Below are positions 11,282 to 53,540 of a stretch of DNA of 64,000 bases, in pieces. The notes under the pieces were generated by a model. It searched no databases. It was not told where the DNA came from and was given only the letters and a program-made list of their open reading frames with translations. Origin of the DNA: an uncultured Bacilli bacterium (GTDB taxonomy: Bacteria; Bacillota_I; Bacilli_A; RF39; UBA660); contig CASTSB010000002.1 in NCBI GenBank assembly GCA_949451605.1, forward strand, positions 46,654-110,653, read 5' to 3'. The translations under genes and the position numbers were made by a program. Every line of letters starts with the position of its first letter. Positions within the stretch are counted from its first letter, which is position 1.

Positions 11282-12070
11282 ATGGGAAAGATTATATCAT
11301 TAGTAAATCAAAAAGGTGGAGTAGGAAAAACAACTACTAGCATTAATCTTTCTGCATCATTAGCAGTATTAGGAAAAAAAACCTTATTAATAGATTTGGA
11401 TCCACAAGGTAATACAACTACTGGTGTAGGAATAAATAAAGGTGAAATAGAAAATAGCGTCTATGATGTTTTAATTGGAGAATGTAATATTAAAGATGCT
11501 ATGATTAAAACAAAATATAAAAATTTATATATACTTCCTGCCACTATAAATTTAGCAGGATTAGATAATGAATTAGCTGAAAAAAGTAAGCAAGAAGAAA
11601 ATTTTTCTAAAGGTGAACAATTAAAAAAACATATAGAAGAAATAAAAGAACAATTTGATTTTATTATTCTAGATTGTCCTCCATCTTTAGGAATAATTAC
11701 GACAAATGCGCTTACAGCATCTAATTCCGTAATTATTCCAGTGCAATGTGAATTTTTTGCATTGGAAGGAATTACACAATTATTGAAAACAATTATGTTG
11801 GCACAAAAGAATTTAAATCCAACTTTAGATATTGAAGGAGTCTTATTGACTATGTTAGACTCAAGAACTAATTTAGGATTTGAAGTTGTTGATGATATAC
11901 GAAAATTCTTTAAAGAAAAGGTATATAACACTATAATTCCAAGATTAGTTAGATTAACAGAAGCACCTTCACATGGAGAGCCAATCATAGCATATGATCC
12001 AAAAAGTAGAGGATCAGAAGCATATATAAATTTAGCGAAGGAAGTGATTTCAAGAAATGGAAGCAAATAA
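11282..12070 (+). CDS. soj: chromosome partitioning ATPase ParA/Soj
   Basis: 262 aa. Deviant Walker A KGGVGKTTT. Confidence 0.85.
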   Translation: MGKIISLVNQKGGVGKTTTSINLSASLAVLGKKTLLIDLDPQGNTTTGVGINKGEIENSVYDVLIGECNIKDAMIKTKYKNLYILPATINLAGLDNELAEKSKQEENFSKGEQLKKHIEEIKEQFDFIILDCPPSLGIITTNALTASNSVIIPVQCEFFALEGITQLLKTIMLAQKNLNPTLDIEGVLLTMLDSRTNLGFEVVDDIRKFFKEKVYNTIIPRLVRLTEAPSHGEPIIAYDPKSRGSEAYINLAKEVISRNGSK

Positions 12071-12968
12071 TGATAATCAATCAACAACTAAAAGAAGAGC
12101 TTTAGGAAGAGGTTTAGAAGAATTATTTTATAATGAACCTATAAATTATGAAAAGGTAGAAGAAAAAATAATTAGTGAGACATCAAAAGATGAAATAGTA
12201 AATATTAAACTTGATGATTTAAGAAGCAATCCTTATCAGCCAAGAAAAATTTTTGATGAAGATGCTTTAAATGAATTAGCGTCTTCTATTAAAGAACATG
12301 GTGTATTTCAACCAATAATAGTTAAAAAAAGTATTAAAGGTTACGAAATAATTGCTGGAGAACGAAGAGTAAAAGCATCAAAAATTGCGGGAAAAACAGA
12401 AATTCCGGCAATAATTAGAGATTTTGATGATACTCAAATGATGGAAATTGCTTTACTTGAAAATTTACAGAGAGAAAATTTAAGCGCAATTGAAGAAGCA
12501 ATGGCATATAAAAAATTACAAGATACTTTAAATCTAACTCAAGAAGCTTTGGCTGCTAGATTAGGAAAAAGTAGAAGTCATATTACAAATATGCTAGGGC
12601 TTTTGAATCTACCTGAAGCTATTCAAGAACAAATTAGTGAAAGAAAAATAAGTATGGGACATGCAAGAGTTCTTAGTAAGCTAGAAAGTAAAGCTCAACA
12701 AGAAGAATTAGCAACTAAAGTTATAAATGAAAATCTAAGTGTAAGAGACCTAGAAAATATAACAACAGAAAAAGAACAATATGCAAGAACTCATAAAATT
12801 AATAAAACCTATAAAGCAAGTAATGAATACAAATTTGTTCAAGAAGACTTATGTGAAAAACTTGGTACTAAAGTAAAAATAAAAAATAATAAAATAGAAA
12901 TCAGTTTCGTTAATGGTAATGATTTAAATAGAATTTTAGAAATAATGAAAATCGAGCCAAGAGGTTAA
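12057..12968 (+). CDS. spo0J: chromosome partitioning protein ParB/Spo0J
   Basis: 303 aa. GERRVKAS ParB box, HTH. Overlaps the soj stop. Confidence 0.85.
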   Translation: MEANNDNQSTTKRRALGRGLEELFYNEPINYEKVEEKIISETSKDEIVNIKLDDLRSNPYQPRKIFDEDALNELASSIKEHGVFQPIIVKKSIKGYEIIAGERRVKASKIAGKTEIPAIIRDFDDTQMMEIALLENLQRENLSAIEEAMAYKKLQDTLNLTQEALAARLGKSRSHITNMLGLLNLPEAIQEQISERKISMGHARVLSKLESKAQQEELATKVINENLSVRDLENITTEKEQYARTHKINKTYKASNEYKFVQEDLCEKLGTKVKIKNNKIEISFVNGNDLNRILEIMKIEPRG

Positions 12969-12969
12969 T

Positions 12970-13788
12970 ATGATAAAATTATTTAACCTTGAAATAAATT
13001 TAAAATTAATAATTTTACCATTAATATATATAATAATAGGAATTATTGTATATGAATTATTAAGAAAGATAATAACTAAGATTACAGTTAATAATAAAAA
13101 ATACAACTTAAAGAATCATCAAAAACAAAGAATTGATACATTAAGAATTTTAATATTAAACATAGTTAAATATATTACAGTAATTATTGTTGTCTTAATG
13201 ATATTAGGAACATTCGGAGTTAATGTAAGTTCTATTTTAGCAGGTCTTGGAATTACAACAGCCATTATTGGATTAGCATTTCAAGATTTAGCAAAAGATA
13301 TAATTGCAGGATTTTCTATTATTACAGAAGCCCAATATGAAGTCGGTGATACAATAGAAGTAGATGGCTTTATGGGAGAAGTAGTATTTTTGGGTCTTAA
13401 AACTACAAGAATAAGAAATTATAAAGGTGCAACAAAGATAATATCAAATCATAATATGGATAAAATAATTAATTATAGCCTTAATAATTCTTTAGCAATT
13501 GTTGATGTAAGTGTGGATTATAATGAAAATTCAGATAAAGTAGAGAAGATTTTAAATGAGGTGGCAGAACGTCTTAATGGTACTATTGAAGAAGCAACTG
13601 GAGAAATTCAAGTTATTGGATTAACATCTTTAGATGATTCAAGTATTAATTATAGAGTAACATTAGAAACAAATGCTATGCAACATTATGCAGTAGAAAG
13701 ACTATTAAAAAAAGAGATTAAAAAAGCTTTCGATAAGGCAAAAATAAAAATACCTTTCCCACAAATAGAGGTTCACAATGGAAAATAA
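12970..13788 (+). CDS. small-conductance mechanosensitive channel (MscS family)
   Basis: 272 aa. N-terminal transmembrane helices, then the MscS beta-domain pattern (GDTIEVDGFMGEVVFLGLKTTRIRNYKG). Confidence 0.7.
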   Translation: MIKLFNLEINLKLIILPLIYIIIGIIVYELLRKIITKITVNNKKYNLKNHQKQRIDTLRILILNIVKYITVIIVVLMILGTFGVNVSSILAGLGITTAIIGLAFQDLAKDIIAGFSIITEAQYEVGDTIEVDGFMGEVVFLGLKTTRIRNYKGATKIISNHNMDKIINYSLNNSLAIVDVSVDYNENSDKVEKILNEVAERLNGTIEEATGEIQVIGLTSLDDSSINYRVTLETNAMQHYAVERLLKKEIKKAFDKAKIKIPFPQIEVHNGK

Positions 13789-13978
13789 TTTAAAATATGA
13801 CATTGGAACAAAAGTTATTATGAAAAAACAGCATCCCTGTGGAAGTAATGAGTGGGAAATTACTAGAGTAGGTGCTGATATAAAGATTAAATGTCTAAAT
13901 TGTGGAAGAACAATTCTAATTCCAAGAATAGAGTTTAACAAAAAACTAAAAAAAATAATTTCACAGGAAGGACAATAA
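13778..13978 (+). CDS. DUF951 (YyzM-like) small protein
   Basis: 66 aa. CGSNEW...CLNCGR zinc-ribbon-like pattern. B. subtilis has yyzM in the same neighbourhood. Confidence 0.55.
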   Translation: MENNLKYDIGTKVIMKKQHPCGSNEWEITRVGADIKIKCLNCGRTILIPRIEFNKKLKKIISQEGQ

Positions 13979-13979
13979 T

Positions 13980-15575
13980 ATGAAAGATAAAAAGAGATTG
14001 AAATTAAAAAAATTCTATTTTCATCCAATAACTGTATTTTTGTTTGCATCACTTATGGTTATTATACTAAGTGGCATCCTTTCAAGTCTTGAAATACAAG
14101 CAACATATAATGTTATTAATGAAAATACTTATGAATTAGAGCCAACACTTGTTGCAGTAGAAAGTTTATTAAATTATGATGGTATAAAATTTATTATAAG
14201 TAACGCCGCTAAAAACTTTTTGAGTTTTGGTCCTTTAGTAAGTTTAATAATATCATTAATAGGTATATCAGTAGCAGAAGCTTCTGGAATGATTGAAGTA
14301 TTCTCTAAAAAGTATTTGAAGAAAATACCAAAACCAACATTAACATTTTTAATTATTCTACTAGCAACTATTTCATCATTAATAAATGACGTAGGTTATG
14401 CTATATTAATTCCATTAATTGCTCTAATTTACTTCATAATTGAAAGAAATCCAATTTTAGGAATAGTCACAACATTTTGTGGAGTATCATTTGGTTATGG
14501 CATTTCAATATTTGTTGGATCAACAGAAGCTGCTCTAATAGGCTATACAAAAAGCGCTGCTATGTTAATTGATGAAAACATTCATATTGCTTTAACAAGT
14601 AACTTAATATTTATAATTGTTGCTTCAATAATATTATCATTAATAGGAACAATAATTATTGAAAAGATTATTTCACCAAAGATAGGCAAATACAAAAAAG
14701 AAGATGAATTTGCTACTACTGAACAATATCGAGTAATAAATTTAGAGGAAGAAGAACAAAAACAAATAGAAAAAGAAAAATACGAAAAAAGAGGTTTAAG
14801 ATTTTCTTTAATTATTGCTTTAATCGTATTATTTATATTTGTATATTCTTTAATACCAAATTTACCTTTCTCAGGAATGTTATTAGATATGTCTGAAAAT
14901 ACATATTTGAATCAATTATTCGGGAAAAATTCATATTTTCAAGATGGATTTACTTATATGATTGCAATATTCTTTGTTCTTGTAGGAATTGCTTACGGAA
15001 TAGGATCAAAATCACTTAAAAGTGATAAAGACTTAATTGAAAAAATAAATCATAATTTTTCTACAATAGGAAGTTCAATACTTTTAATGTTTGTAGTATC
15101 CCAATTTATAGCAATTTTTAAGCAAACTAATATTGGAATCATTATAGCTTCTTGGTTAGCAAACATCTTGAATAATTTAAATATAAGTGGAATTCCATTA
15201 ATTATAGTTACTTTAATTTTCATTGCACTTGCAAACTTTACTTTAACTGGATCTGCAAATAAATGGTTAATTTTTTCTCCAGTAGTAGTACCTATGTTTA
15301 TGCAATCAAACATTTCTCCACAATTTGCTCAAATAGTTATGCGAGCTGGAGACTCTATGACTAATGGATACACACCGATACTTGCATCATTTGTAATATA
15401 TATTGCTTATTTAAATATTTACAATTTAAATAAAGCAAAACCTTATTCAATAAAAAAATCCTTAAATTTAATAACTCCATACTTTATTTTAATATCAATA
15501 ACATGGATTTTATTAGTAGTAGGATGGTATATTATTGGATTACCAATAGGTCCAGGAGTTTATCCGACATTATAA
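13980..15575 (+). CDS. polytopic membrane transporter (AbgT/YfcC-like, uncertain family)
   Basis: 531 aa with about 12 predicted hydrophobic segments. No family-diagnostic motif recognised. Confidence 0.4.
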   Translation: MKDKKRLKLKKFYFHPITVFLFASLMVIILSGILSSLEIQATYNVINENTYELEPTLVAVESLLNYDGIKFIISNAAKNFLSFGPLVSLIISLIGISVAEASGMIEVFSKKYLKKIPKPTLTFLIILLATISSLINDVGYAILIPLIALIYFIIERNPILGIVTTFCGVSFGYGISIFVGSTEAALIGYTKSAAMLIDENIHIALTSNLIFIIVASIILSLIGTIIIEKIISPKIGKYKKEDEFATTEQYRVINLEEEEQKQIEKEKYEKRGLRFSLIIALIVLFIFVYSLIPNLPFSGMLLDMSENTYLNQLFGKNSYFQDGFTYMIAIFFVLVGIAYGIGSKSLKSDKDLIEKINHNFSTIGSSILLMFVVSQFIAIFKQTNIGIIIASWLANILNNLNISGIPLIIVTLIFIALANFTLTGSANKWLIFSPVVVPMFMQSNISPQFAQIVMRAGDSMTNGYTPILASFVIYIAYLNIYNLNKAKPYSIKKSLNLITPYFILISITWILLVVGWYIIGLPIGPGVYPTL

Positions 15576-25546: not shown

Positions 25547-26209
25547 ATGATAGGAAATAGTTGGGATAATTTATTAAACGAGGAATATGAAAAGGAATAT
25601 TTCAAAAAATTATTAGAGTTTTTAAAAGCAGAATACAAAAGCAAAACAATATATCCAAAAAGAAGTGAAATATTTAATGCTTTTAGATATACTTCTTTTG
25701 ATGATGTGAAAGTAGTAATAATCGGGCAAGATCCTTATCATGGGCCAAAACAAGCAGAGGGATTATCTTTTTCAGTAAGTAATGAAGTATTAAAACCACC
25801 TTCACTAAAAAACATTTTTAAGGAACTAGAAAGTGATTTGGGAATACCATTTCCTGAACATAATTCTCTTAAGCCTTGGACACAAGAAGGTGTTATGTTA
25901 TTAAATGCTGTACTTACTGTTGAAGAACATAATCCAACATCACATAAAGATAAAGGATGGGAACAATTTACTGATAACGTTATTAAAATAATAAATGAAA
26001 AAGAAACGCCAGTAGTTTTTATACTATGGGGAAGTTTTGCTAGGGGAAAGAAAAATCTAATCACTAACAAACGACACTACATCATAGAATCTGCTCATCC
26101 TTCTCCATTTTCTGCTTATAATGGATTTTTCGGAAGTAAACCATTTTCAAAAGCAAACGATTTCTTAAGAAAAAACAATATAAAAGAGATAAATTGGAGA
26201 ATAGAATGA
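25547..26209 (+). CDS. ung: uracil-DNA glycosylase (family 1)
   Basis: GQDPYHGPKQAEGLSFSV and HPSPFSA motifs. Confidence 0.9.
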   Translation: MIGNSWDNLLNEEYEKEYFKKLLEFLKAEYKSKTIYPKRSEIFNAFRYTSFDDVKVVIIGQDPYHGPKQAEGLSFSVSNEVLKPPSLKNIFKELESDLGIPFPEHNSLKPWTQEGVMLLNAVLTVEEHNPTSHKDKGWEQFTDNVIKIINEKETPVVFILWGSFARGKKNLITNKRHYIIESAHPSPFSAYNGFFGSKPFSKANDFLRKNNIKEINWRIE

Positions 26210-33200: not shown

Positions 33201-34268
33201 ATGATAGATAGATTAGAAGTAACTTTACAAAAATATGAATTTTTAGAAGCAGAACTTACTAAACCTGAAGTACTTTCAGATATAAAAAAAACAAGAGAAT
33301 ATTCAAAAGAACTTGCCGATTTAGAAGATATAGTAGCATGTTATAAAAAATATAAAAAAGTTTTAGATGATATAGAATCATCAAAAGAAATGATTAAAGA
33401 TCCAGAATTAGGCGATATGGCTAAAGAAGAATTAAAACAATTAGAAGATGAAAAAGCTTCTTTAGATAAAGAGCTAGAAGTCTTATTAATTCCAAAAGAT
33501 CCTAACGATGGTAAAAACGTTGTAATAGAAATAAGAGGAGCTGCTGGTGGAGACGAAGCAAATATTTTTGCGGGTGACCTTTTTAGAATGTATACAAGAT
33601 ATGCAGAAAAGAAAGGTTTTTCATATCAAGTATATAACTCTGTAGAAGGAACTGCTGGTGGATTTAGTCAAATTGAATTTATTATAAAAGGTAAAAACGC
33701 ATATTCTTTACTAAAATATGAAAGTGGTTCTCATAGAGTACAAAGAGTTCCTGTTACTGAATCTAATGGTAGACTTCAAACATCTACTGCTACAGTTTTA
33801 GTAATGCCAGAAGCAGATGATGACATTGATATAGAAATCAATCCTAATGATTTAAGAATTGATATCTATAGATCAAGTGGTTGTGGAGGACAAGGAGTAA
33901 ATACAACAGATTCAGCAGTAAGAATAACACACTTACCTACAAATACAGTAGTAACATGCCAAAACGAACGTAGTCAAATTCAAAATAAAGAGCAAGCAAT
34001 GAAAGTTTTAAAAACTCGCCTTTATGAGCTACAAGAACAAGAAAAGCTTGAAAAAGAAGGGGCTGAAAGAAGAAGTAAAATAGGTACTGGTGATAGAGCA
34101 GAAAAAATACGTACTTATAATTACCCACAAAATAGAGTTACTGATCATAGAATTGGTTTCACTACAAAAAATCTTGATAGAGTAGTTGATGGAGATTTAG
34201 AAGAAGTAATTAATGCTTTAATTCAAGAGGACCAAAAAAGAAAACTTCAAGGAGAAACAGAAGAATAA
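33201..34268 (+). CDS. prfA: peptide chain release factor 1
   Basis: 355 aa. PxT-type domain and the GGQ motif (SGCGGQGVNTTDSAVRITHLPT). Confidence 0.9.
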   Translation: MIDRLEVTLQKYEFLEAELTKPEVLSDIKKTREYSKELADLEDIVACYKKYKKVLDDIESSKEMIKDPELGDMAKEELKQLEDEKASLDKELEVLLIPKDPNDGKNVVIEIRGAAGGDEANIFAGDLFRMYTRYAEKKGFSYQVYNSVEGTAGGFSQIEFIIKGKNAYSLLKYESGSHRVQRVPVTESNGRLQTSTATVLVMPEADDDIDIEINPNDLRIDIYRSSGCGGQGVNTTDSAVRITHLPTNTVVTCQNERSQIQNKEQAMKVLKTRLYELQEQEKLEKEGAERRSKIGTGDRAEKIRTYNYPQNRVTDHRIGFTTKNLDRVVDGDLEEVINALIQEDQKRKLQGETEE

Positions 34269-38652: not shown

Positions 38653-38756
38653 AATAATTTGTATAACAAACGTTAATATTTAATTTTCTGTTTGCCTTGA
38701 AATTATAGATATATAAATATATAAATATATACTTAATGTAGAGTAGAGGTAATAAT

Positions 38757-39437
38757 ATGAGAACTATAAGACAAAATAAAATGATTAGAATTTGAATACT
38801 TGTTATGATAATAGGCGGTCTTTCTATTGGATTTGCCGCGTTTTCAAATAGTTTAAATATTAAATCAAGTACAACAGTTTCACCTAGCCAAGATGAATTT
38901 AAGATAGAAGCCTCATGCTCATCTAATGCTGCAAATGAGTGTGAAATAACACCAACGGCTAATAACGAAATTCTAATTTCGAATTCTTCTAAGGCTATAA
39001 TTGAAAATACAAATGATGGCATTATTGTTAAAAATATAAATTTTTATTTTACTGAGCCAGGTCAGGAAATTACCTATTCCTTTTATGTAAGAAATGTTGG
39101 TAATTTAACAGCTTATATAAAAAGTTATGTTTTCAAAAATATTGATGGACTTTCTAAAACGGTAAAATGTACAGCTGGAGAAGGGACTTCTCAAAAATTA
39201 GTCGACGCTTTTTGTAATAATGGGCTAAGTTATAATTTTAGTGTTTTAAATTCTACTACTGGCTATGGTATTTATCATGCCTTTGAAGACTCAACAAATC
39301 AAAAAATTGAAATTAATAAATCAGGTTTAATATCTTTAACAGTTAAGTATTATGATAAACAAAGAAGAGTTGATGGCCCTGTTGAAATAGAAATAGGTGA
39401 ATTTTACATCAATTTTTCTACCGTTCCTAATAGCTAG
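38757..39437 (+). pseudogene. TasA/camelysin-like secreted protein with in-frame TGA inside the signal peptide
   Basis: ATG 38757 encodes MRTIRQNKMIRI, then TGA at 38793-38795, then in the same frame ILVMIIGGLSIGFAAFSNSLNIK... (track ORF 38805..39437). The joined peptide is a textbook n-region plus h-region signal peptide, and GFAAFS resembles the TasA/CalY GTFAYFS motif. Confidence 0.45.
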
Positions 39438-39561
39438 TCACATTATGAATAATATTAAAATTAAAATCTATCAAAAAAACTAGACAATTAGAGAAATTCT
39501 TGTTATACTAATAACGCATTTAATTACTATGACTTAATGTCATGGCGGAAGGAGTGAAAGA

Positions 39562-44044: not shown

Positions 44045-46534
44045 ATGAAATTTTTAAGAAAATTATTTGATCATGAATATAAAGAATTAAAAAGGTTCGA
44101 AATATTAGCTAATAAAATCATGGATTTAGATGAAGAATATTCTAAATTGACTGATACAGAATTACAAAACAAAACTGAAGAATTTAAAGAACGTCTACAA
44201 AAAGGTGAAACTTTAGATGATATCTTGGTTGAAGCATTTGCTACAGCTCGTGAAGCTTCTTTCCGTGTTATAGGAGAAAAACATTACTTTGTCCAAATAC
44301 TAGGTGGACTTGCAATTCATTTTGGAAATATTGCTGAAATGAAAACAGGTGAAGGAAAAACTTTAACCAGTGTATTACCAGCATACCTAAATGCTCTATC
44401 AGGAGAAGGAGTTCATATTATTACTGTAAATGAATACCTAGCTGGAAGAGATGCTGAATGGATGGGTGGAATTCATAGATTCTTAGGCCTTACAGTTGGT
44501 GTTAATGGAAGAGATTTAACTCCTACAGAAAAACAAGAGGCTTATAATTGCGATATATTATATTCAACAAATAATGAAATTGGTTTTGATTATTTAAGAG
44601 ATAACATGGTTGTTAGAAAAGAGGAAAGAGTTCAAAGAAGATTAAATTTTGCCATAATCGATGAAGTGGATTCTGTTCTAATAGATGAAGCAAGAACTCC
44701 TTTAATTATTTCTGGTGGAGAAATGAAAGCAGCTAATTTATATATTGATGCTGACAAATTTGCTAAAAGTTTAAAAGAAGAAAAAGACTTTATTTATGAT
44801 GAAAAAACAAAAAGTGTTAATTTAACTGAATCTGGATCTGATAAAGCAGAAAAAATGTTTCATATAAACAATTTATATGATATTGAAAATGCAACTTTAT
44901 TACACTTTGTAAATCAAGCATTAAAAGCTAATTATTCAATGAGAAATGATGTTGATTACGTAGTTCAAGATGGAGAAGTAGTAATAGTAGATCAATTTAC
45001 TGGTCGTCTACAAAAAGGACGTGCTTATTCTGATGGTCTTCATCAAGCAATTGAAGCAAAAGAAGGCGTACAAATTAATCAAGAAACAAAAACCCTAGCA
45101 ACTATTACTTTCCAAAATCTATTTAGAATGTATAAAAAATTATCTGGAATGACTGGTACAGCTAAAACAGAAGAAGAAGAATTTAGAAACATCTATAATA
45201 TGTATGTAATTGAAATCCCAACAAATAAAGAAGTTATAAGAATTGATGCACCAGATCTTGTATATGCAACTAAAGAGGCCAAATATAAAGCAATTGTTGA
45301 ATTTGTAAAAGATAAATATGAACATGGTCAACCTGTATTAATTGGTACAATCGCAATAGAAAGTAGTGAATTAATAAGTAATCTATTAAAACAAGCTCAT
45401 ATTCCACATGAAATATTAAATGCTAAAAATCATGCGCGTGAAGCAGAAATTATTTCAAAAATTGGACAAAATAAATCTGTAACTATCGCTACAAATATGG
45501 CAGGTCGTGGTACTGATATTAAACTATCAGATGAAATAAAAAAACTAGGAGGTCTATGTGTTGTAGGTACAGAACGTCATGAATCACGCCGTATCGATAA
45601 CCAATTACGTGGACGTTCAGGTCGTCAAGGAGATCCTGGTTATACTCAATTCTTTGTTTCTATGAAAGATGATCTTATGGTTAGATTTGGTTCAGATAGA
45701 ATCGGCGATATGATGAAAAACTTAGGACTTGGAGATCAAGCAATCCAAAGTAAAACATTTACAAATTCTATTGGAACAGCTCAAAAAAGAGTTGAGGGAA
45801 ACAATTTTGATATAAGAAAATCTTTACTTCAATATGATGATGTTATGAATAATCAAAGAGAAATAATTTATGAAAAAAGAAATAAAATTTTAGATAATGA
45901 TAGTATTTATTCAATGGTTACCAATACATTTAGAAATCATATAGAAGATTTAGTAAAATCTCACTTAGCACCAGAAGATTATTTAACTGACAGTGATTTA
46001 GAAGAAATAACTGAATTTGCCAATGAGAATTTACTAAAAAAAGATATAAAAATATCAGAAATAAAAGATTTATCACCAGAAGAAATTATTGATAAATTAT
46101 CAAAACAGTTAATAACAGAATATGAAGATAAAATAAAAGATGTACCAAAAGAAATTTCTAATGAATTTGAAAAAGTAATTACACTACAAGTACTTGATAA
46201 TTACTGGATGGAGCATATAAATACTATGTCACACTTAAGAGAAGGAATTCATTTAAGAGGTTATGCTCAAGAAGATCCATTAAGAGCATATACAATGGAA
46301 GGTTTTGAACTTTTTGATTCAATGCTTCAAAAAGTTGATAAAGATATTTGTATATTCTTATCAAAAGCAGAAATAAGACAAAATATAGAAAGAAAAGAAA
46401 CAACAAAAAAACAAATAACTAATGATACTGAATCAAGAGATACAAAAAAAACAAAGAAGAGCAAAAAAATTGGTAGAAATGAACCATGTCCTTGTGGAAG
46501 TGGAAAGAAATATAAGCAATGTTGCGGAAAGTAG
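44045..46534 (+). CDS. secA: preprotein translocase ATPase SecA
   Basis: 829 aa. DEAD-like motor motifs. C-terminal zinc finger CPCGSGKKYKQCCG. Confidence 0.95.
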   Translation: MKFLRKLFDHEYKELKRFEILANKIMDLDEEYSKLTDTELQNKTEEFKERLQKGETLDDILVEAFATAREASFRVIGEKHYFVQILGGLAIHFGNIAEMKTGEGKTLTSVLPAYLNALSGEGVHIITVNEYLAGRDAEWMGGIHRFLGLTVGVNGRDLTPTEKQEAYNCDILYSTNNEIGFDYLRDNMVVRKEERVQRRLNFAIIDEVDSVLIDEARTPLIISGGEMKAANLYIDADKFAKSLKEEKDFIYDEKTKSVNLTESGSDKAEKMFHINNLYDIENATLLHFVNQALKANYSMRNDVDYVVQDGEVVIVDQFTGRLQKGRAYSDGLHQAIEAKEGVQINQETKTLATITFQNLFRMYKKLSGMTGTAKTEEEEFRNIYNMYVIEIPTNKEVIRIDAPDLVYATKEAKYKAIVEFVKDKYEHGQPVLIGTIAIESSELISNLLKQAHIPHEILNAKNHAREAEIISKIGQNKSVTIATNMAGRGTDIKLSDEIKKLGGLCVVGTERHESRRIDNQLRGRSGRQGDPGYTQFFVSMKDDLMVRFGSDRIGDMMKNLGLGDQAIQSKTFTNSIGTAQKRVEGNNFDIRKSLLQYDDVMNNQREIIYEKRNKILDNDSIYSMVTNTFRNHIEDLVKSHLAPEDYLTDSDLEEITEFANENLLKKDIKISEIKDLSPEEIIDKLSKQLITEYEDKIKDVPKEISNEFEKVITLQVLDNYWMEHINTMSHLREGIHLRGYAQEDPLRAYTMEGFELFDSMLQKVDKDICIFLSKAEIRQNIERKETTKKQITNDTESRDTKKTKKSKKIGRNEPCPCGSGKKYKQCCGK

Positions 46535-46537
46535 ATT

Positions 46538-46565
46538 AAAGCCCATTTATAAGGGCTTTTCTTAT
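46538..46565 (+). terminator. rho-independent terminator after secA
   Basis: AAAGCCCatttataAGGGCTTTT. Confidence 0.65.
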
Positions 46566-46606
46566 AAACAAATTTATTAAAATGGCAAGGGAATTTTAGT
46601 TTTTAA

Positions 46607-46894
46607 TTGTCATTAATAATTTATGATATAATTAAAATATTAATAATTACTTTTGCCATAGGAGGTATATTTTATACAATAAAAATAAGTAATAGATATA
46701 ATAAAGATACCTCAACTAAAGAAGTTATAATTAGCCTTTTTAAGGAACATAATGCAATAGATTTAGAAAGTGGTATTAAAATTAAAGATTTACCTAATAA
46801 CATTTCAAAAAGCCTATATCTATTAATGATGGTTAAAGATAATACTCTTATTTTTAAGAAAGGTAAATATTATTTAAATGAAAAACTTAAGTAA
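46607..46894 (+). CDS. hypothetical small protein with N-terminal TM helix (island gene 1)
   Basis: 95 aa from a TTG start. No RBS confidently identified. Overlaps the next ORF by 17 nt. Confidence 0.3.
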   Translation: MSLIIYDIIKILIITFAIGGIFYTIKISNRYNKDTSTKEVIISLFKEHNAIDLESGIKIKDLPNNISKSLYLLMMVKDNTLIFKKGKYYLNEKLK

Positions 46895-47108
46895 ATATAA
46901 AAAATTATGGGAATATTTAGAAGCTAATAAAGAATTAGAATATAATCTATCTTTTGATGATATAAAAAATATTATTGGTTTCAATATTGATCATTCATTT
47001 TTATCTTATAAAAAAGAAGCCGAAATATATGGTTATAAAGTAAAAAAAATATCATTAAAAGAAAAAATGATAGTTTTTGAAAAAAACAAGAAATTAGGAG
47101 ATATATGA
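46878..47108 (+). CDS. hypothetical small protein (island gene 2)
   Basis: 76 aa. Overlaps both flanking ORFs, consistent with an operon. Confidence 0.3.
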   Translation: MKNLSKYKKLWEYLEANKELEYNLSFDDIKNIIGFNIDHSFLSYKKEAEIYGYKVKKISLKEKMIVFEKNKKLGDI

Positions 47109-47740
47109 AAAATAAAATTAGTGAAATAGGAGCCATATCCATGGCTTTATTGTATAGAAAGAAATATGCTGATTCAGAAATGATTAAATTGTCTTCAGCA
47201 AAAAAATTCAAAGAAACTATTGAAAGTAATTTACAAAGCATGCATAGTGAGTATAGTTGGTGCACAAATTATAAAGAAGAAAATGATTTATATTTTATAT
47301 GTAGAGATGAAAATAATATCTTATATGCAATTATTGACCCTTCAGCAAATATTCAAAGAGCCACAGAACATTATATTTACTGTTTGCCTACAGATATAAT
47401 TCAGGCTTCATTAATGAATAATGTCTTAGAAATTATTGGCTTAAAAGAAGAAAATAATAAGATTGTAGAAATAAGGGATGAAAAACTAGACAATGAATTA
47501 GAAAAAGTAATAAATCTAAATATAAAAGATCCTAATAATTTTTATAAGGAAGTTTTCTATAGTTTAAGCTTAGAGGAAAGAGATTTCTTAAAACAACAAT
47601 TTACTAATAAAAGCTGTTTCAATTGTATTAATGGTCTATGCAAATTACCATATAAAGAAAAAGGTGATAAAGGTTGCTGTATTGATTGGCAAAATCCATC
47701 AGAATTAGGTAAGAAATATATATTAAAAAAGAAAAGTTAA
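47105..47740 (+). CDS. hypothetical protein with C-terminal Cys-cluster (island gene 3)
   Basis: 211 aa. C-terminus CFNCINGLCKLPYKEKGDKGCCIDW suggests a metal-binding knuckle. Confidence 0.35.
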   Translation: MKNKISEIGAISMALLYRKKYADSEMIKLSSAKKFKETIESNLQSMHSEYSWCTNYKEENDLYFICRDENNILYAIIDPSANIQRATEHYIYCLPTDIIQASLMNNVLEIIGLKEENNKIVEIRDEKLDNELEKVINLNIKDPNNFYKEVFYSLSLEERDFLKQQFTNKSCFNCINGLCKLPYKEKGDKGCCIDWQNPSELGKKYILKKKS

Positions 47741-47770
47741 GAACATTATATGTTCTTTTATTTTTTTCTT
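47739..47770 (+). terminator. rho-independent terminator after island gene 3
   Basis: AAGAACATtatATGTTCTT followed by TTATTTTTTT. Confidence 0.55.
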
Positions 47771-47774
47771 AACA

Positions 47775-47788
47775 AGAACAAATGTTCG
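47775..47788 (+). promoter_or_regulatory. LexA (Cheo/SOS) box overlapping promoter of radical-SAM operon
   Basis: AGAACAAATGTTCG gives a perfect GAAC-N4-GTTC core, matching the Bacillus consensus CGAACATATGTTCG at 12 of 14 positions. It lies immediately upstream of TATAAT (47792-47797) and 26 nt before the ATG at 47814. Confidence 0.6.
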
Positions 47789-47813
47789 TGTTATAATTGA
47801 ATTGGTGATAACT

Positions 47814-49019
47814 ATGGATTTAAAAGAAAAACTAATTATATTAGCTGATAGCGCAAAATATGATGCCTCATGTTCATCCAGTGGCAGTTCAAGAAAAGAA
47901 GGTAAACTAGGCAATACAGCAGTGGCAGGTATATGCCATTCATTTGCTGCAGATGGTAGATGTATTTCTCTTCTAAAAATATTATTAACAAATTGTTGCA
48001 TTTACGATTGCAAATATTGTCCAAATAGACGAACTAATAATATTAAAAGAGCAACATTTACTAAAGAAGAAATATGTGAAATTACTATTAATTTTTATAG
48101 AAGAAATTACATAGAAGGACTTTTTATTTCTTCTGGTATTATAAAAAATCCTGATTACACAATGAATCTTATGATAGAAGCAATCTCGTTATTAAGAAGT
48201 AAATATCATTTTGGTGGATATATACATGCAAAAGCTATTCCCGGAGCAAGTGAGTATCTTTTGAAAAAACTAGGTAATCTTGTTGATAGATTAAGTGCCA
48301 ATGTAGAACTACCAACTGATGAAGGGTTAAAACTATTAGCTCCTAATAAAGATAATAGAAAAGTAGATAAAATAATGGATTATGTTCATAAAAACAGAAC
48401 AAATAAATTTGTCCCAGCAGGACAAAGCACCCAGATGATTATAGGAGCAACAAAGGAGACGGACTTAGAAATAATGTCAAAAAGCTCTACTATGTATAAT
48501 AAACATGAATTAAAAAGAGTTTTTTATTCTGCTTATATTCCTGTAAATAAAGATAAACTTTTACCAACGCTCCAAACGCCACCACTATTAAGAGAAAATA
48601 GACTATACCAAGCAGACTGGCTATTAAGATATTATAATTTTAAAGTTGAAGATATTTTAGATGAGAAAAATCCAAATTTTAATCTTTTACTAGATCCGAA
48701 GGCCTCTTGGGCTTTAAAACATTTAAATGAATTTCCAAAAGAGATAAATAGCTGTTCATTTAATGATCTTTTAAAAATACCAGGTATAGGAGTTACTTCT
48801 GCGAAAAGAATAATTTCTTCACGAAAATATTTTAAAATTACATTTAATGATTTGAAGAAAATGGGGATTGTTTTAAAAAGGGCAAAGTATTTTATCACAT
48901 GTAATAATAAGTATTTTACAGATAGCACATTCTTTAATAAAAATATTATAGAAAGAAATTTAATATTAGAAGACAAAGTAAAAAAAGAATCTAATATTGA
49001 ACAATTAGCTTTATTTTAA
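47814..49019 (+). CDS. putative DNA modification/repair radical SAM protein with HhH (TIGR03916-like)
   Basis: CIYDCKYC cluster (CxxxCxxC). C-terminal helix-hairpin-helix LLKIPGIGVTSAKRII. Start at the ATG after RBS GGTGAT; the track ORF begins 12 nt upstream. Confidence 0.7.
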   Translation: MDLKEKLIILADSAKYDASCSSSGSSRKEGKLGNTAVAGICHSFAADGRCISLLKILLTNCCIYDCKYCPNRRTNNIKRATFTKEEICEITINFYRRNYIEGLFISSGIIKNPDYTMNLMIEAISLLRSKYHFGGYIHAKAIPGASEYLLKKLGNLVDRLSANVELPTDEGLKLLAPNKDNRKVDKIMDYVHKNRTNKFVPAGQSTQMIIGATKETDLEIMSKSSTMYNKHELKRVFYSAYIPVNKDKLLPTLQTPPLLRENRLYQADWLLRYYNFKVEDILDEKNPNFNLLLDPKASWALKHLNEFPKEINSCSFNDLLKIPGIGVTSAKRIISSRKYFKITFNDLKKMGIVLKRAKYFITCNNKYFTDSTFFNKNIIERNLILEDKVKKESNIEQLALF

Positions 49020-49786
49020 TGAAAAAAAGTAATTATATTTATCTATATGATAATGATTTTATATCTCTATTAAGTCTGATAAAAATACTTATAACGAAGA
49101 AAGTAATTCCATGTAATATAAAACCTAATACATATACTCCTTCACTTTTTGAAGAGACATTTAAAGAACAAATATCCGAAAATGAAATCATTATAAAAGA
49201 AATAATAGATGCGACTTCATTCTATATTCTTAACACAATGTATAAAATATTTCTATCTGAGCACAATGATAAAGAGATAATAATCTACTACTTTTTTGTT
49301 CATGCCTTAAAATATCAAAATAAAATTTATTATATGCGTAATTTAAAAAGTGTTACTGAGGCATTAAAAATTGAAAAATTTGTAGAACATGAAACACATA
49401 AATTTAAAGGATTTCTTAGGTTTAAGGAATTAAAAGGTGGAATTTTGTATGCCACTATAGAACCGGATAATAACATAATTCTTTTCCTTTCTAAACATTT
49501 TAAACAAAGACTCCAAAATGAATTTTGGATTATAGAAGATAAAAAAAGACAATTAATAAGCATATATGATAAAAATAATTTTTATATTACTTCTTCAGAA
49601 TGCTTCAATATTTTAGATAAAGAGTTATCAGAAGCTGAAGAAGATATAGAAAACTTATGGAAAAACTTTTACAAAACAATTGCAATAAAAGAAAGAACTA
49701 ATTATAGATGTCGTATGAATTTTATGCCAAAAAAATACTGGAAATATATTATAGAAATGAGTGATAAAAATGAAAATAGTTATTAG
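49019..49786 (+). CDS. TIGR03915/DUF4130-like putative DNA metabolism protein (partner of the radical SAM protein)
   Basis: N-terminus IYLYDNDFISLLSLI...PSLFEE matches my recollection of the family N-terminus (IYxYDGxFEGLLTxIF...QxSLF). Translationally coupled (TAATG) to the upstream gene. Confidence 0.55.
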   Translation: MKKSNYIYLYDNDFISLLSLIKILITKKVIPCNIKPNTYTPSLFEETFKEQISENEIIIKEIIDATSFYILNTMYKIFLSEHNDKEIIIYYFFVHALKYQNKIYYMRNLKSVTEALKIEKFVEHETHKFKGFLRFKELKGGILYATIEPDNNIILFLSKHFKQRLQNEFWIIEDKKRQLISIYDKNNFYITSSECFNILDKELSEAEEDIENLWKNFYKTIAIKERTNYRCRMNFMPKKYWKYIIEMSDKNENSY

Positions 49787-51320
49787 TGGTCAAGAACTAC
49801 AAGAAAAGATGACTTTTGCAGTTAATTTATTATGTAATACAGTAAAAAGTACCATTGGACCCAAGGGAAGCAATATTATAATAGATCATTCTGCCTTTAG
49901 TCCTTTTATTACAAATGATGGAGTAACAATAGCACAAAATATAGAAAGTGAAGATCAAATTACCAATACCATTTTGGAATTAGCAAAAGAAGCTTCAATA
50001 AAGACTAATTATTTGGTAGGAGATGGTACAACCACAACATTAGTTTTACTACAAGTAATTTTCAATGAAGGATTAAAAGAAATAAATAATGGAAAAAATC
50101 CTATTATTTTAAAAAAAGAGCTTGAAGAAAGTTTATCAAAAATAATAATAAAAATAAAAGAAGAAAGTAAAAAATCTACACTCAAAGATTTAGAAAATAT
50201 TGCTTTGACGTCTTCTAGTTCTAAAGAAATAGCCAAAATAATTACAGAAGCTTTTAAAATAACTAAAAATAAAGAGTCAATTAAGATTATAGAACAAGAA
50301 AATAATTCCATTAACTTAATTTATAAAAAAGGATATTCAATAGATACACTATTAGCTTCTCCTTATTTTCTGGCAGATAAAAAAGAGATATCAGAAGAAA
50401 ATTTATCTGTTATATTGATTAATAATTATATTCAAGAAATAGAAGAAATTTCAATTTATTTAAGTGATGCTATTACAAATAAAAAATCTTTAATAGTTTT
50501 AGCAGAGGATTATTCTGAATTGGTAATAAATGAAGTTTTATCAATAAACGAATATAGTAATAATAAAATATACTTGCTTAAAATACCAGAATATGGAAAA
50601 AACAAATATGATTTGTTAAAAGATTTAGAACTAATAACAAAAGCTAAAATAATAAACGATTTAGCAAATATAAGTTTTGAAAATTTAGGATTAATAGAAA
50701 ATATAAAAATTGATTGTTCACAAAGCACATTTTATTTTAATGAAAATAATAAAATTAATGAAAAAATAAAAGAGCTTAAGTCTCTTTTTGATAATACTGA
50801 AGAATATAATGAATATTTAGCCAAAAGAATATCAATGTTAGAAACAGGTATTATTGAAATTCTTATTGGAGCACCAACTATTACAGAAAGAAGAGAAAAG
50901 AAAATGAGAGCAGATGATTGCTTATGTGCAATTAACTCTGCAAAAGATGGTTTTGTTACTGGTAGTGGATTAACTTTGTATAAAATTTCAGATAGTTTTC
51001 AAAAAGAAAATCAATCAATTTCTAATATTTTACTAAAAGCACTACAAGAGCCTTTTAAAGAGATAATGTTTAATTCAGGTCTAGATTATAAAGAAATTAT
51101 TTCAGAAATCAAATTATCCAATTATCAAAAAGTTTATAATGTTATAAGCGAGAAATTCGAAAATATAGCTAGTTCAACTGTTAAGGATCCTACAAAAGTA
51201 GTAATTGACTCATTAATTAATGCAACTTCAATAGCTAGTATTTTATTAACAACCACTTCCTTAATAGTTAATGAATACAAAAATAATACCAATAAAATAA
51301 ATGACTTCAATGATTTATAA
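49761..51320 (+). CDS. highly divergent orphan chaperonin Cpn60/GroEL paralog (no GroES partner)
   Basis: Collinear with GroEL by eye: GPKGSNIIIDHSAFSPFITNDGVTIAQNIESEDQ ([34 protein letters not shown]), GDGTTTTLVL (GDGTTTATVL), SPYFLADKKEISE, LIVLAEDYS, ERREKKMRADDCLCAINSAKDGFVTGSGLTL ([32 protein letters not shown]). Lacks the GGM tail. Overlaps the upstream gene. Confidence 0.7.
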   Translation: MIKMKIVISGQELQEKMTFAVNLLCNTVKSTIGPKGSNIIIDHSAFSPFITNDGVTIAQNIESEDQITNTILELAKEASIKTNYLVGDGTTTTLVLLQVIFNEGLKEINNGKNPIILKKELEESLSKIIIKIKEESKKSTLKDLENIALTSSSSKEIAKIITEAFKITKNKESIKIIEQENNSINLIYKKGYSIDTLLASPYFLADKKEISEENLSVILINNYIQEIEEISIYLSDAITNKKSLIVLAEDYSELVINEVLSINEYSNNKIYLLKIPEYGKNKYDLLKDLELITKAKIINDLANISFENLGLIENIKIDCSQSTFYFNENNKINEKIKELKSLFDNTEEYNEYLAKRISMLETGIIEILIGAPTITERREKKMRADDCLCAINSAKDGFVTGSGLTLYKISDSFQKENQSISNILLKALQEPFKEIMFNSGLDYKEIISEIKLSNYQKVYNVISEKFENIASSTVKDPTKVVIDSLINATSIASILLTTTSLIVNEYKNNTNKINDFNDL

Positions 51321-51364
51321 TTATTGTATAATATAATAAAAGTAGTGATTAAAGGAGAATAATT

Positions 51365-52213
51365 ATGGCTGTAGAAGTTACAATAAAGAATAAAAGTTTA
51401 TTTAAAAGAAAATTAAATATAAAAGATTTAATATTAGATGGTATACGTTATGGAATAATGGATGAAGCTTTTAGATTAGAAGAAAATAAAATTGGTGAAA
51501 ATACTGTTTTATTTGATAAGCAACATGTTTGTAGAGGATTTGAAGTATCTTTGAATAATAATGAAATCTTTCTAAGAATGCCTCTTCCAACATCTACCAA
51601 AGATATAGAATTTTTTTACAACTATATTACTAAAATTTGTAAAAAACTTAATACAAAAAAATTTATAAGAGAAAATGAAACAGTATTTATCGATCAAATA
51701 GAAGAATTTATCAACTTTGATATTGAAACTAGTAAAAATGCTTTAAAACAAATGCAAACAAAAATAGAATCAGAAGAAATGAATAATATGTACTTGTTCG
51801 GAGCAGTAAATCCAATTTGCTTAGGAAAAGAAGAAATAGAAAAGATAAACAATAGTCCAAGAAACCTTGGAGAATTACTTAATAGTATTCAAACCAAAGA
51901 TGTATATTACGCAAAGCCAAGTATCTATCAAAAAAAAGATGAATCATTTTTTGGAGTTTTTGTATTAACATCAGATGTTCCAACAGTATTACCATATATA
52001 CCTAAACTTATAATGCCTAATAAAGAAATAAAGGTAAATAATTGGTATTTATGTTTCGTTGTAAAAGATCAAATGTTAGGGCAAATAGCCTATGATGATT
52101 TTACTTCTAATTTAAAAGATGAAGATTCTTATGATAGTGAACATTTTGTAATTAATCTAAATGAAAAGATTATAAAAGATTATTTAGAAAAATATAGAAC
52201 AGAAATAGACTAA
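51365..52213 (+). CDS. hypothetical protein, last gene of SOS-box operon
   Basis: 282 aa. RBS AAAGGAGAATAATT before the ATG. No recognisable motif. Confidence 0.35.
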   Translation: MAVEVTIKNKSLFKRKLNIKDLILDGIRYGIMDEAFRLEENKIGENTVLFDKQHVCRGFEVSLNNNEIFLRMPLPTSTKDIEFFYNYITKICKKLNTKKFIRENETVFIDQIEEFINFDIETSKNALKQMQTKIESEEMNNMYLFGAVNPICLGKEEIEKINNSPRNLGELLNSIQTKDVYYAKPSIYQKKDESFFGVFVLTSDVPTVLPYIPKLIMPNKEIKVNNWYLCFVVKDQMLGQIAYDDFTSNLKDEDSYDSEHFVINLNEKIIKDYLEKYRTEID

Positions 52214-52230
52214 TAATTAGTCTATTTTTG
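52205..52230 (+). terminator. terminator at end of island operon
   Basis: ATAGACTAATaATTAGTCTAT palindrome overlapping the stop codon, followed by TTTTTG. Confidence 0.45.
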
Positions 52231-52444
52231 TATAAAAAAAGAACCCCCTGAATAGGAGCTCCATCTATTTACAGAGGATCTTCACACTACATAGTGAACC
52301 TTCCTCATTTATAATATATGTAAAAACATAAAAAATATACACAATAAAATTTTCCAAACTTTCAAATTGTAAAAATTTATGCTATTCTTAAATTAAATAG
52401 TATTTTAAAAACTAAAAGAGCAATAATAATATAAGGAGAAAATA

Positions 52445-53540
52445 ATGGAAAAAAAAGATTTAGAAAAAATAATTAATTATAATATTGAAACGATAAATAG
52501 TTTATGGAGGTCACTTTGACATAGATTCCAAAAAACAAAAAGTAAAAGATTTAGAACAAATTACTGCAAACCAAAATTTTTGGAATAATAGGTTAGAAGC
52601 CGAAAAAGTTTTAAAAGAAATTACAGAGTTAAAAAACATTATTAATCAAGTTTCTGACTTAAAAATAAAATTAATTGATAATAAAGATTTTTTAGAAATA
52701 ATTGATGAAAAAGATGTAGAATTATTTTCTCAATTAGAAAAAACAATTAATGAAGATAATAAGATAGTAGAAGACTTGAATTTGCTATTACTTTTAAGCG
52801 GACCTTATGACAAAAACGACTGTATTTTAGAAATTCATTCGGGAGCTGGTGGAACTGAAGCTTGTGATTGGGCAAATATGATATATAGAATGTATCAAAG
52901 ATGGTGTGAAAAGAAAAAATATAAAATTGAAATTCTAGATTATCAAACTGGTGAAGAAGCTGGAATTAAAAGTGTGTCATTAAAAATAAAAGGTTTAAAT
53001 GCCTATGGATATTTAAAAAATGAGAAAGGTGTACATAGATTAGTTCGATTATCTCCTTTTGATTCAAATAATAGAAGACATACTTCATTTGCATCTGTAG
53101 AAGTAACACCAGACATAGAAGTTGATAATTCTATAGAAATAGATGAAAAAGACTTAAAAATCGATGTATATAGATCTACAGGAGCTGGAGGACAAGGAGT
53201 AAATACAACAGATTCAGCAGTAAGAGTTACCCATTTGCCTACTAAAATAGTTGTTACATGTCAAAATGAAAGAAGTCAAATTCAAAATAAAGAGCAAGCA
53301 ATAAAAGTATTAAAAAGTAAATTATTAGTAAAAAAACTTGAAGAGCAAGCAAAAGAAATAAATGCTATAAAGGGTGAACAAATGAATATTGAATTTGGCT
53401 CTCAAATAAGAAGTTATGTAATGCATCCTTATTCTTTAGTAAAAGACCACAGAACTAATGAAGAAACAAGCGATGTATTCAAAGTTTTAGATGGTGAGAT
53501 AGATAAATTTATTGAAAGTAATTTAAAGAAAGGGTTATAA
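52445..53540 (+). CDS. prfB: peptide chain release factor 2 (programmed +1 frameshift)
   Basis: Upstream frame MEKKDLEKIINYNIETINSLWRSL ends at CTT TGA C. The +1 frame continues DIDSKKQKVKDLEQITANQNFWNN...LLLLSGPYDKNDCILEIHSGAGGTEACDW and includes the GGQ motif, collinear with B. subtilis RF2. The track ORF 52776..53540 is the downstream part. The start coordinate is uncertain by 1 nt because of my counting across homopolymer runs. Confidence 0.85.
52514..52520 (+). promoter_or_regulatory. prfB autoregulatory +1 frameshift site CTT TGA C with upstream SD-like GGAGG
   Basis: TGGAGGTCACTTTGAC shows the canonical RF2 recoding signal: internal Shine-Dalgarno, CUU-UGA-C slippery stop with a C after the stop. 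Confidence 0.8.

Follow-up and report, generated by a model that had tools for sequence, protein, structure and literature searches.

An in-frame TGA in the signal peptide of an orphan secreted-protein gene very probably marks a recent pseudogene in an uncultured Bacilli bacterium

The window analyzed in this study is a stretch of 64,000 nucleotides from an uncultured Bacilli bacterium of the RF39 lineage (GenBank assembly GCA_949451605.1, contig CASTSB010000002.1, positions 46,654 to 110,653 of the forward strand). On its forward strand, positions 38757-39437 hold a gene for a small protein with a signal peptide, and the reading frame of this gene is interrupted by a TGA. From ATG 38757-59 the frame reads MRTIRQNKMIRI (12 codons), then the in-frame TGA at 38793-95, then ILVMIIGGLSIGFAAFSNSLNIK and the remaining codons up to a TAG stop at 39435-37. 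A G-to-T change created the UGA at codon 13, and every strain sampled has the gene in an inactivated form. The locus is very probably a recently inactivated, orphan copy of a multi-copy family of secreted proteins, that is, an ordinary decaying pseudogene in which no recoding takes place. A sequence-only reading of the same DNA had offered recent pseudogenization by a nonsense mutation, a sequencing error, and stop-codon readthrough as possible explanations. The first of these is the one that our results favor, with the change from GGA to TGA being derived and all 19 assemblies compared carrying a disabled gene.

The elements of the gene lie on the forward strand in the expected order. A Shine-Dalgarno sequence, AGAGG (38745-38749), is found 7 nt upstream of ATG 38757, and the paralog P0007 has the same AGAGG-ATG layout; judged by this motif, ATG 38757 is the true start of the gene. 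No Shine-Dalgarno-like sequence was found before the next candidate start, ATG 38805. The start codon and the n-region of the signal peptide, 12 codons with a net charge of +4 (MRTIRQNKMIRI), occupy 38757-38792 and align with the N-termini of all homologs. They are followed by the premature stop (38793-38795), which same-species alleles, paralog P0007, and the homologs identify as a former GGA (Gly13) altered by one G-to-T change. The rest of the disabled gene (38796-39437) encodes the h-region ILVMIIGGLSIGFA, a probable cleavage site near GFA/AFS, a mature domain predicted to be a β-sandwich, and the TAG stop. When the two parts are joined into one protein of 226 amino acids (aa), the n-region has a charge of +4 and the h-region has 18 residues, compared with a charge of 0 and 13 residues when translation starts at ATG 38805. 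The TGA thus lies where the sequence-only reading had placed it, and to go by these features it splits a genuine signal peptide. In addition, a candidate sigma-70-like site, TAGATA-16-TATACT (38706-38733, forward strand), lies inside a ATATATAA repeat and is the only such site 5' of the gene. It is a weak match to the consensus, and the count of such sites is not above that of shuffled sequences.

The codons upstream of the TGA are conserved among relatives. Using the joined 226-aa sequence as the query, a protein search of a collection of 5.8 billion clusters returned 80 homologs, nearly all of 215-232 aa and with 96-99% query coverage. These proteins start about 20 residues before a nearly invariant LSIGFAAFS, and in their alignment this stretch shows a basic n-region followed by a hydrophobic core. 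The same extension of about 20 residues ahead of LSIGFAAFS was present in the reading frames of 55 genomic loci (L007-L061), which were located from a 12-sequence family alignment. Therefore, neither of the observations that would have spoken against a split signal peptide, orthologs starting at the equivalent of 38805 or poor conservation of the upstream codons, was made. The 12 upstream codons can be aligned residue for residue with three homologs, and in each of them a glycine stands under the TGA of the window: P0007 reads MRTIYQKKMIKL-G-ILVMIIGG, with GGA as the glycine codon, P0066 reads MRTIRQKNNIKI-G-ILVL, and P0006 reads MRDQRKNKMIFI-G-ILAL. Among all homologs, the residues in this alignment column are G, I, A, V, T, or L; Cys does not occur. 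The comparison with relatives that the sequence-only reading had proposed thus yielded a sense codon, GGA in the other alleles of the species described below and in P0007, and Gly in P0006 and P0066. Syntenic orthologs were not found in other species; P0002 and P0004 (about 50% identical), as well as P0007 and P0066 with their near-identical leaders, are located elsewhere. For this reason, the polarity of the change from GGA to TGA rests on the same-species alleles and the paralogs. Separately, the DNA of the window at 38727-38886, covering the ribosome-binding site (RBS) and the signal-peptide region and including about 30 bp 5' of the ATG, is 72-79% identical to paralogs at two other loci (L062, L077), while the mature domains of these paralogs reach merely 35-50% protein identity with that of the window. 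The 5' module of RBS and signal peptide may be conserved or exchanged among the copies of the family.

These data also bear on whether the annotated product could be a working protein. Public pipelines annotate the open reading frame (ORF) at 38805-39437 only, with a product of 210 aa (P0081), and such a product could be made by reinitiation at ATG 38805. This ATG lies 10 nt past the TGA, and termination-reinitiation at so close a start is mechanistically possible. However, it has no RBS, and the resulting N-terminus would be uncharged, with a stretch of 13 residues, against a charge of +4 and 18 residues in every homolog. None of the approximately 80 homologs starts at this position, apart from calls that are themselves truncated. 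We therefore regard a functional 210-aa product as very improbable.

The distribution of alleles in the species gives the strongest indication that the gene is decaying. The window and 18 other assemblies, taken from ENA, Logan, and JGI (n = 19), were aligned to the window and fell into four haplotypes; the closest database cluster has 9 members. Haplotype A consists of the window and two JGI metagenome contigs identical to it (L075, L076), which have TGA at codon 13 and no other lesion. Haplotype B (L001-L006, from ENA/Logan) also has TGA at codon 13, together with a 2-bp deletion at 39038-39, an 8-bp deletion at 38715-22, and an in-frame TTT insertion. In haplotype C (L065-L068), codon 13 is GGA, and codon 110 (39084-86), which is TAT for Tyr in the window, has become TAA (Y110stop). 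Haplotype D (L069-L074) likewise has GGA at codon 13 and shares the 2-bp deletion of haplotype B. This deletion removes AA at 39038-39039 of the forward strand, a site that is intact in the window, and shifts the frame in haplotypes B and D; in haplotype B the shifted frame ends in a stop after ...NIFLFY. The 8-bp deletion of haplotype B (38715-38722) corresponds to the loss of one unit of the ATATATAA repeat, and it shortens the spacer of the promoter-like site from 16 to 8 nt. All four haplotypes, and all 19 assemblies, are thus disabled, through three independent lesions (G13stop, Y110stop, and the 2-bp frameshift). An intact allele was seen neither in the 19 assemblies nor in the 9-member cluster, nor among the matches of the collection-wide protein search.

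The recurrence of the TGA also addresses the suspicion that it is an error of sequencing or assembly that hides an intact gene. Such an error has a prior plausibility in draft or metagenome-derived sequence, and this plausibility is all that speaks for it. The TGA at 38793 recurs in at least 8 independent assemblies besides the window. Two of them are the JGI metagenome contigs, whose sequence is the same as that of the window, and six are ENA/Logan assemblies in which the T at 38793 occurs on another haplotype background. We give practically no credence to an error at this site, although the sequence-only reading had listed one.

The gene is also more variable than its surroundings. The flanks of the haplotypes are 99.8-100% identical, and the pairwise difference in the focal gene is 0.7% plus indels, compared with 0.04-0.19% in the flanks. 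The polymorphisms of the focal gene comprise 2 nonsense, 3 missense, and 4 synonymous changes, one frameshift, and a single in-frame insertion. The genes around it (fba, murA, a GDSL-like gene, rpmE, rpiB, a DUF1146 gene, an M23 peptidase gene, and mreB) are all intact, whichever haplotype is considered. All four combinations of TGA or GGA with deletion or no deletion are present in the population, indicating either that recombination took place inside a stretch of about 245 bp or that the 2-bp indel arose more than once by slippage in the A/T-rich run AAAAATATAAATTTTT. Taken together, the locus displays what is looked for in a pseudogene, namely a disabling lesion relative to intact homologs, the reality of this lesion in the population, independent further lesions, and relaxed constraint.

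A reassigned genetic code, in which TGA is read as Trp (table 4) or Gly (table 25), would leave the gene intact. Several observations could be taken to point in this direction. The public gene calls P0085 and P0088 (JGI/Logan, loci L075 and L076) have Trp at the TGA, Gly occupies the aligned column in homologs, and relatives are labelled "Mycoplasma sp." or "Tenericutes" metagenome-assembled genomes (MAGs). The G+C content of the window is low (26.7%), and TGA terminates only 1 of its 64 likely genes, compared with 50 for TAA and 13 for TAG. This sole TGA-terminated gene (25547-26209) has another stop two codons on. However, the window contains a complete prfB gene for release factor 2 (RF2) with a programmed +1 frameshift (52445-53540, forward strand): 24 codons, the canonical site GGAGG TCA CTT TGA C (52514-52520), and 340 codons of the +1 frame with the SPF and GGQ motifs. 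This autoregulatory site functions solely if RF2 reads UGA as a stop. Since RF2 is encoded in full and its CTT-TGA-C frameshift site is intact, TGA functions as a stop here, and the organism follows the standard code. Moreover, no internal TGA was found in the 64 other likely genes of the window, and all of their Trp codons are TGG. The other alleles of the species carry an ordinary GGA at codon 13 and are broken elsewhere. As for P0085 and P0088, which report a spurious "intact" protein of 226 aa, we reject them as evidence for TGA as Trp and consider them to be artefacts of gene calling under table 4, because P0088 places a W at an out-of-frame TGA too, and because L075 and L076 do not give P0085 under table 11. 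A reassigned code is thus extremely improbable.

Two further details of translation were recorded in the window. In the mechanical ORF listing, prfB appears just as a 254-aa fragment from TTG 52776. The gene for release factor 1, prfA (33201-34268, forward strand), was named by reading, with a GGQ motif in its translation, and its exact protein is present in a public collection; with prfB, it completes the standard set of two release factors. No tRNA genes were found in the 64-kb window.

Among the stop codons of low-GC Firmicutes, UGA is the one most prone to readthrough, and low-level near-cognate reading of it is known from Bacillus subtilis. The TGA might accordingly be a leaky stop acting as an attenuator, with near-cognate readthrough, probably by Trp, yielding a reduced amount of functional exported protein. 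It is consistent with this that haplotype A has kept the ORF past the TGA intact, and that Trp at the boundary of n- and h-regions would probably be tolerated, since this column is variable in the homologs (G, I, A, V, T, or L). However, an intact ORF is expected anyway at about 1% divergence, and no structure or element that promotes readthrough was found: an Rfam scan gave no match to a selenocysteine insertion sequence (SECIS) or other element at or near the TGA, and the predicted RNA fold downstream of it was no better than that of shuffled sequences (z = -1.4). Furthermore, lineage B, which has the TGA, gained a frameshift and the deletion in the promoter-like site, and the lineages with GGA were independently inactivated; these further lesions indicate that nothing preserves the function of the gene. 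Readthrough, which the sequence-only reading had also proposed, is therefore hard to reconcile with the presence of RF2, the lack of a SECIS or notable RNA structure, and the different lethal lesions of the other alleles, and we consider it quite improbable. Insertion of selenocysteine at the TGA was rejected as well, given that no SECIS was detected, the fold had a z of -1.4, and the aligned column is never Cys.

The inactivation itself can be pictured as follows. A single G-to-T change turned the GGA of Gly13 into TGA. Ribosomes starting at the RBS-equipped ATG 38757 would release a peptide of 12 residues, and any reinitiation product from ATG 38805 would lack the basic n-region, and its hydrophobic core would be shortened, making its export unlikely. 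The gene is very probably dispensable in the species: each sampled strain has this lesion or another disabling one, and sister copies in relatives are decaying too.

The copy in the window is an orphan, located between the GDSL-like gene and an L31 leader followed by rpmE. This leader is an ordinary feature (Rfam L31-Firmicutes, 39527-39554, just 5' of rpmE, 34.3 bits against a gathering score of 33.3). The homologs with similar leaders or sequences are likewise scattered one by one in other contexts, with the P0007 gene between smc and a DHH-family gene, the P0066 gene before smc, the P0004 gene after gyrA or parC, and the P0002 gene in yet another context. Several relatives carry more than one copy. 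Locus L062 has two intact family copies, and L077 has two intact copies plus a frameshifted copy (11843-12506) and a broken one (13744-14394); in each of these loci, several paralogs lie within 10-17 kb. L078 has one intact copy plus a fragment (1019-1387). Stops interrupt the leader of the L059 copy (near 8028), and L053 has a truncated copy (7225). The family is multi-copy with fast birth and death, and the loss of one copy is therefore unremarkable.

A stronger claim would be that the species does not merely tolerate losing this fibre or surface protein but is under active selection to lose it. The background to it is that three independent knockouts are seen, that no intact allele was sampled, and that two of the lesions occur in all four combinations in genomes that are otherwise 99.8-99.96% identical. 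If the loss was selected, escape from phages that use the protein as a receptor, escape from host immunity, or prior loss of the SipW/DUF5305 machinery described below are possible drivers. In a softer version of the same proposal, the UGA allele would represent a leaky, down-tuned state of expression. We consider selected loss unlikely.

The sequence-only reading had described the product as a TasA/camelysin-like secreted protein. Membership in that family was not confirmed. The joined protein had no match to PF12389 (Peptidase_M73, TasA/camelysin) at E ≤ 1, nor did any of 56 family members at this threshold. The model for the SipW-cognate signal peptide, which we take to be TIGR04088, was not listed in NCBIfam scans of the joined protein (E ≤ 10) or of P0012 and P0024 (E ≤ 1), in which HMMER filters may drop weak short matches. 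The likeness between the GFA/AFSN motif and TWA/AFND was seen by eye only. A family profile gave no match at E ≤ 10 among PDB sequences, TasA included, and the protein gave only weak, sub-threshold matches to Ig-like domains (Cep192_D5, DUF7507). A structure model was built from the 210-aa ORF starting at 38805, with its N-terminal 20 residues at low confidence. Foldseek returned no significant match in PDB. In structural comparison, the best matches of the predicted β-sandwich were subunits of donor-strand filaments, TasA among them. The structures matched were the following (score and matched length): a Sulfolobus thread subunit (7pnb_A; 7.3, 152 of 183), the Pyrobaculum bundling pilin (7ueg_A; 6.3, 140), the TasA fibre (8aur_A; 5.8, 138), the CanX cannula (9h8b; 5.7, 125), and DUF1102 (9bac; 5.5, 127).

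The genomic context of the relatives is more informative. In 39 of the 55 related loci, the family gene is directly followed by a gene for a protein of about 376 aa with a SipW-type (archaeal-type) signal peptidase I domain. Residues 247-374 of this neighbor match TIGR02228 (97.6 bits against a cutoff of 51.85) and contain the motifs SGSMEP, HRIY, and TKGDAN, and residues 1-245 form a polytopic membrane region. The second neighbor downstream is a DUF5305 protein in 34 of the 55 loci (PF17231, 61.2 bits against a cutoff of 29). A three-gene unit, consisting of the family gene, the fusion of polytopic membrane domain and peptidase, and the DUF5305 gene, is conserved in gut Bacilli MAGs (L007-L061, for example L024:8001-11000). 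Within the window itself, the search for sipW that the sequence-only reading had suggested found none, there being no SGSMxP box in six frames of the 64 kb, and no peptidase, DUF5305 gene, or paralog of the family was found there. The family thus probably consists of small secreted β-sandwich proteins processed by a SipW-type signal peptidase, and by analogy its members may assemble as TasA-like donor-strand fibres. A TasA-like functional reading is suggested because of the SipW-type peptidase/DUF5305 context in the relatives together with the predicted fold. It seems reasonable to use "SipW-processed, TasA-like" as a fair description of how these proteins work, and not as a statement of family membership; it is in this functional sense that the TasA/camelysin label holds.

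Our results indicate that 38757-39437 should carry a pseudogene annotation in place of a 210-aa coding sequence. The table-4 calls P0085 and P0088, with their wrong Trp, call for caution in code-inference screens of low-GC organisms. The TGA itself matters little, being a routine nonsense mutation in a pseudogene; what is worth annotating, as a modest by-product, is the family together with its conserved operon. An unannotated family of gut Bacilli tied to a SipW-type peptidase with multiple transmembrane (multi-TM) segments and to DUF5305 would extend TasA-like matrix or fibre systems to an uncultured lineage, and the family shows rapid birth and death of such gene copies.

Elsewhere in the window, secA (44045-46534) and prfB, which in Firmicutes mostly lie side by side, have about 6 kb of other genes between them (46535-52444). 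Those recognized by eye include one resembling radical-SAM proteins (47802-49019), a partner ORF (49019-49786), and a divergent ORF resembling Cpn60 (49761-51320). The intervening segment may be an insertion.

Compared with known systems, the family has no detectable sequence homology to the TasA/CalY proteins of Bacillus (PF12389), which are encoded in the tapA-sipW-tasA operon and form donor-strand-exchange fibres (PDB 8AUR). No TapA-like gene was seen at the family loci. The peptidase of the relatives differs from Bacillus SipW by an extra N-terminal polytopic domain of about 245 residues and scores 65 bits against the SipW equivalog cutoff of 190, and the copy in the window has no peptidase neighbor. 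The combination of fibre subunits with a dedicated multi-TM signal peptidase I and DUF5305 has been reported from haloarchaeal Tat-fimbriae (PMC11821415) and, in both archaea and bacteria, from AbpX/TasA-like matrix loci (bioRxiv 10.64898/2026.01.04.697558). Relatives of the window's copy share the multi-TM signal peptidase I and DUF5305 with such Tafi/AbpX-type loci, whereas the window's copy does not. Unlike these loci, AbpA (7UEG), and the Sulfolobus threads (7PNB), the family has so far been confined to low-GC gut-type Bacilli MAGs. No genes for minor subunits, tips, or anchors were seen adjoining the family gene, many copies, including that of the window, stand singly among housekeeping genes, and filament formation is a prediction. 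As a decayed gene, the locus resembles ordinary pseudogenes of redundant surface-protein paralogs, which likewise show single-nucleotide nonsense changes, independent lesions, raised local diversity, and decayed paralogs. It is slightly unusual among them in that all four combinations of the nonsense mutation and the 2-bp deletion coexist in the species.
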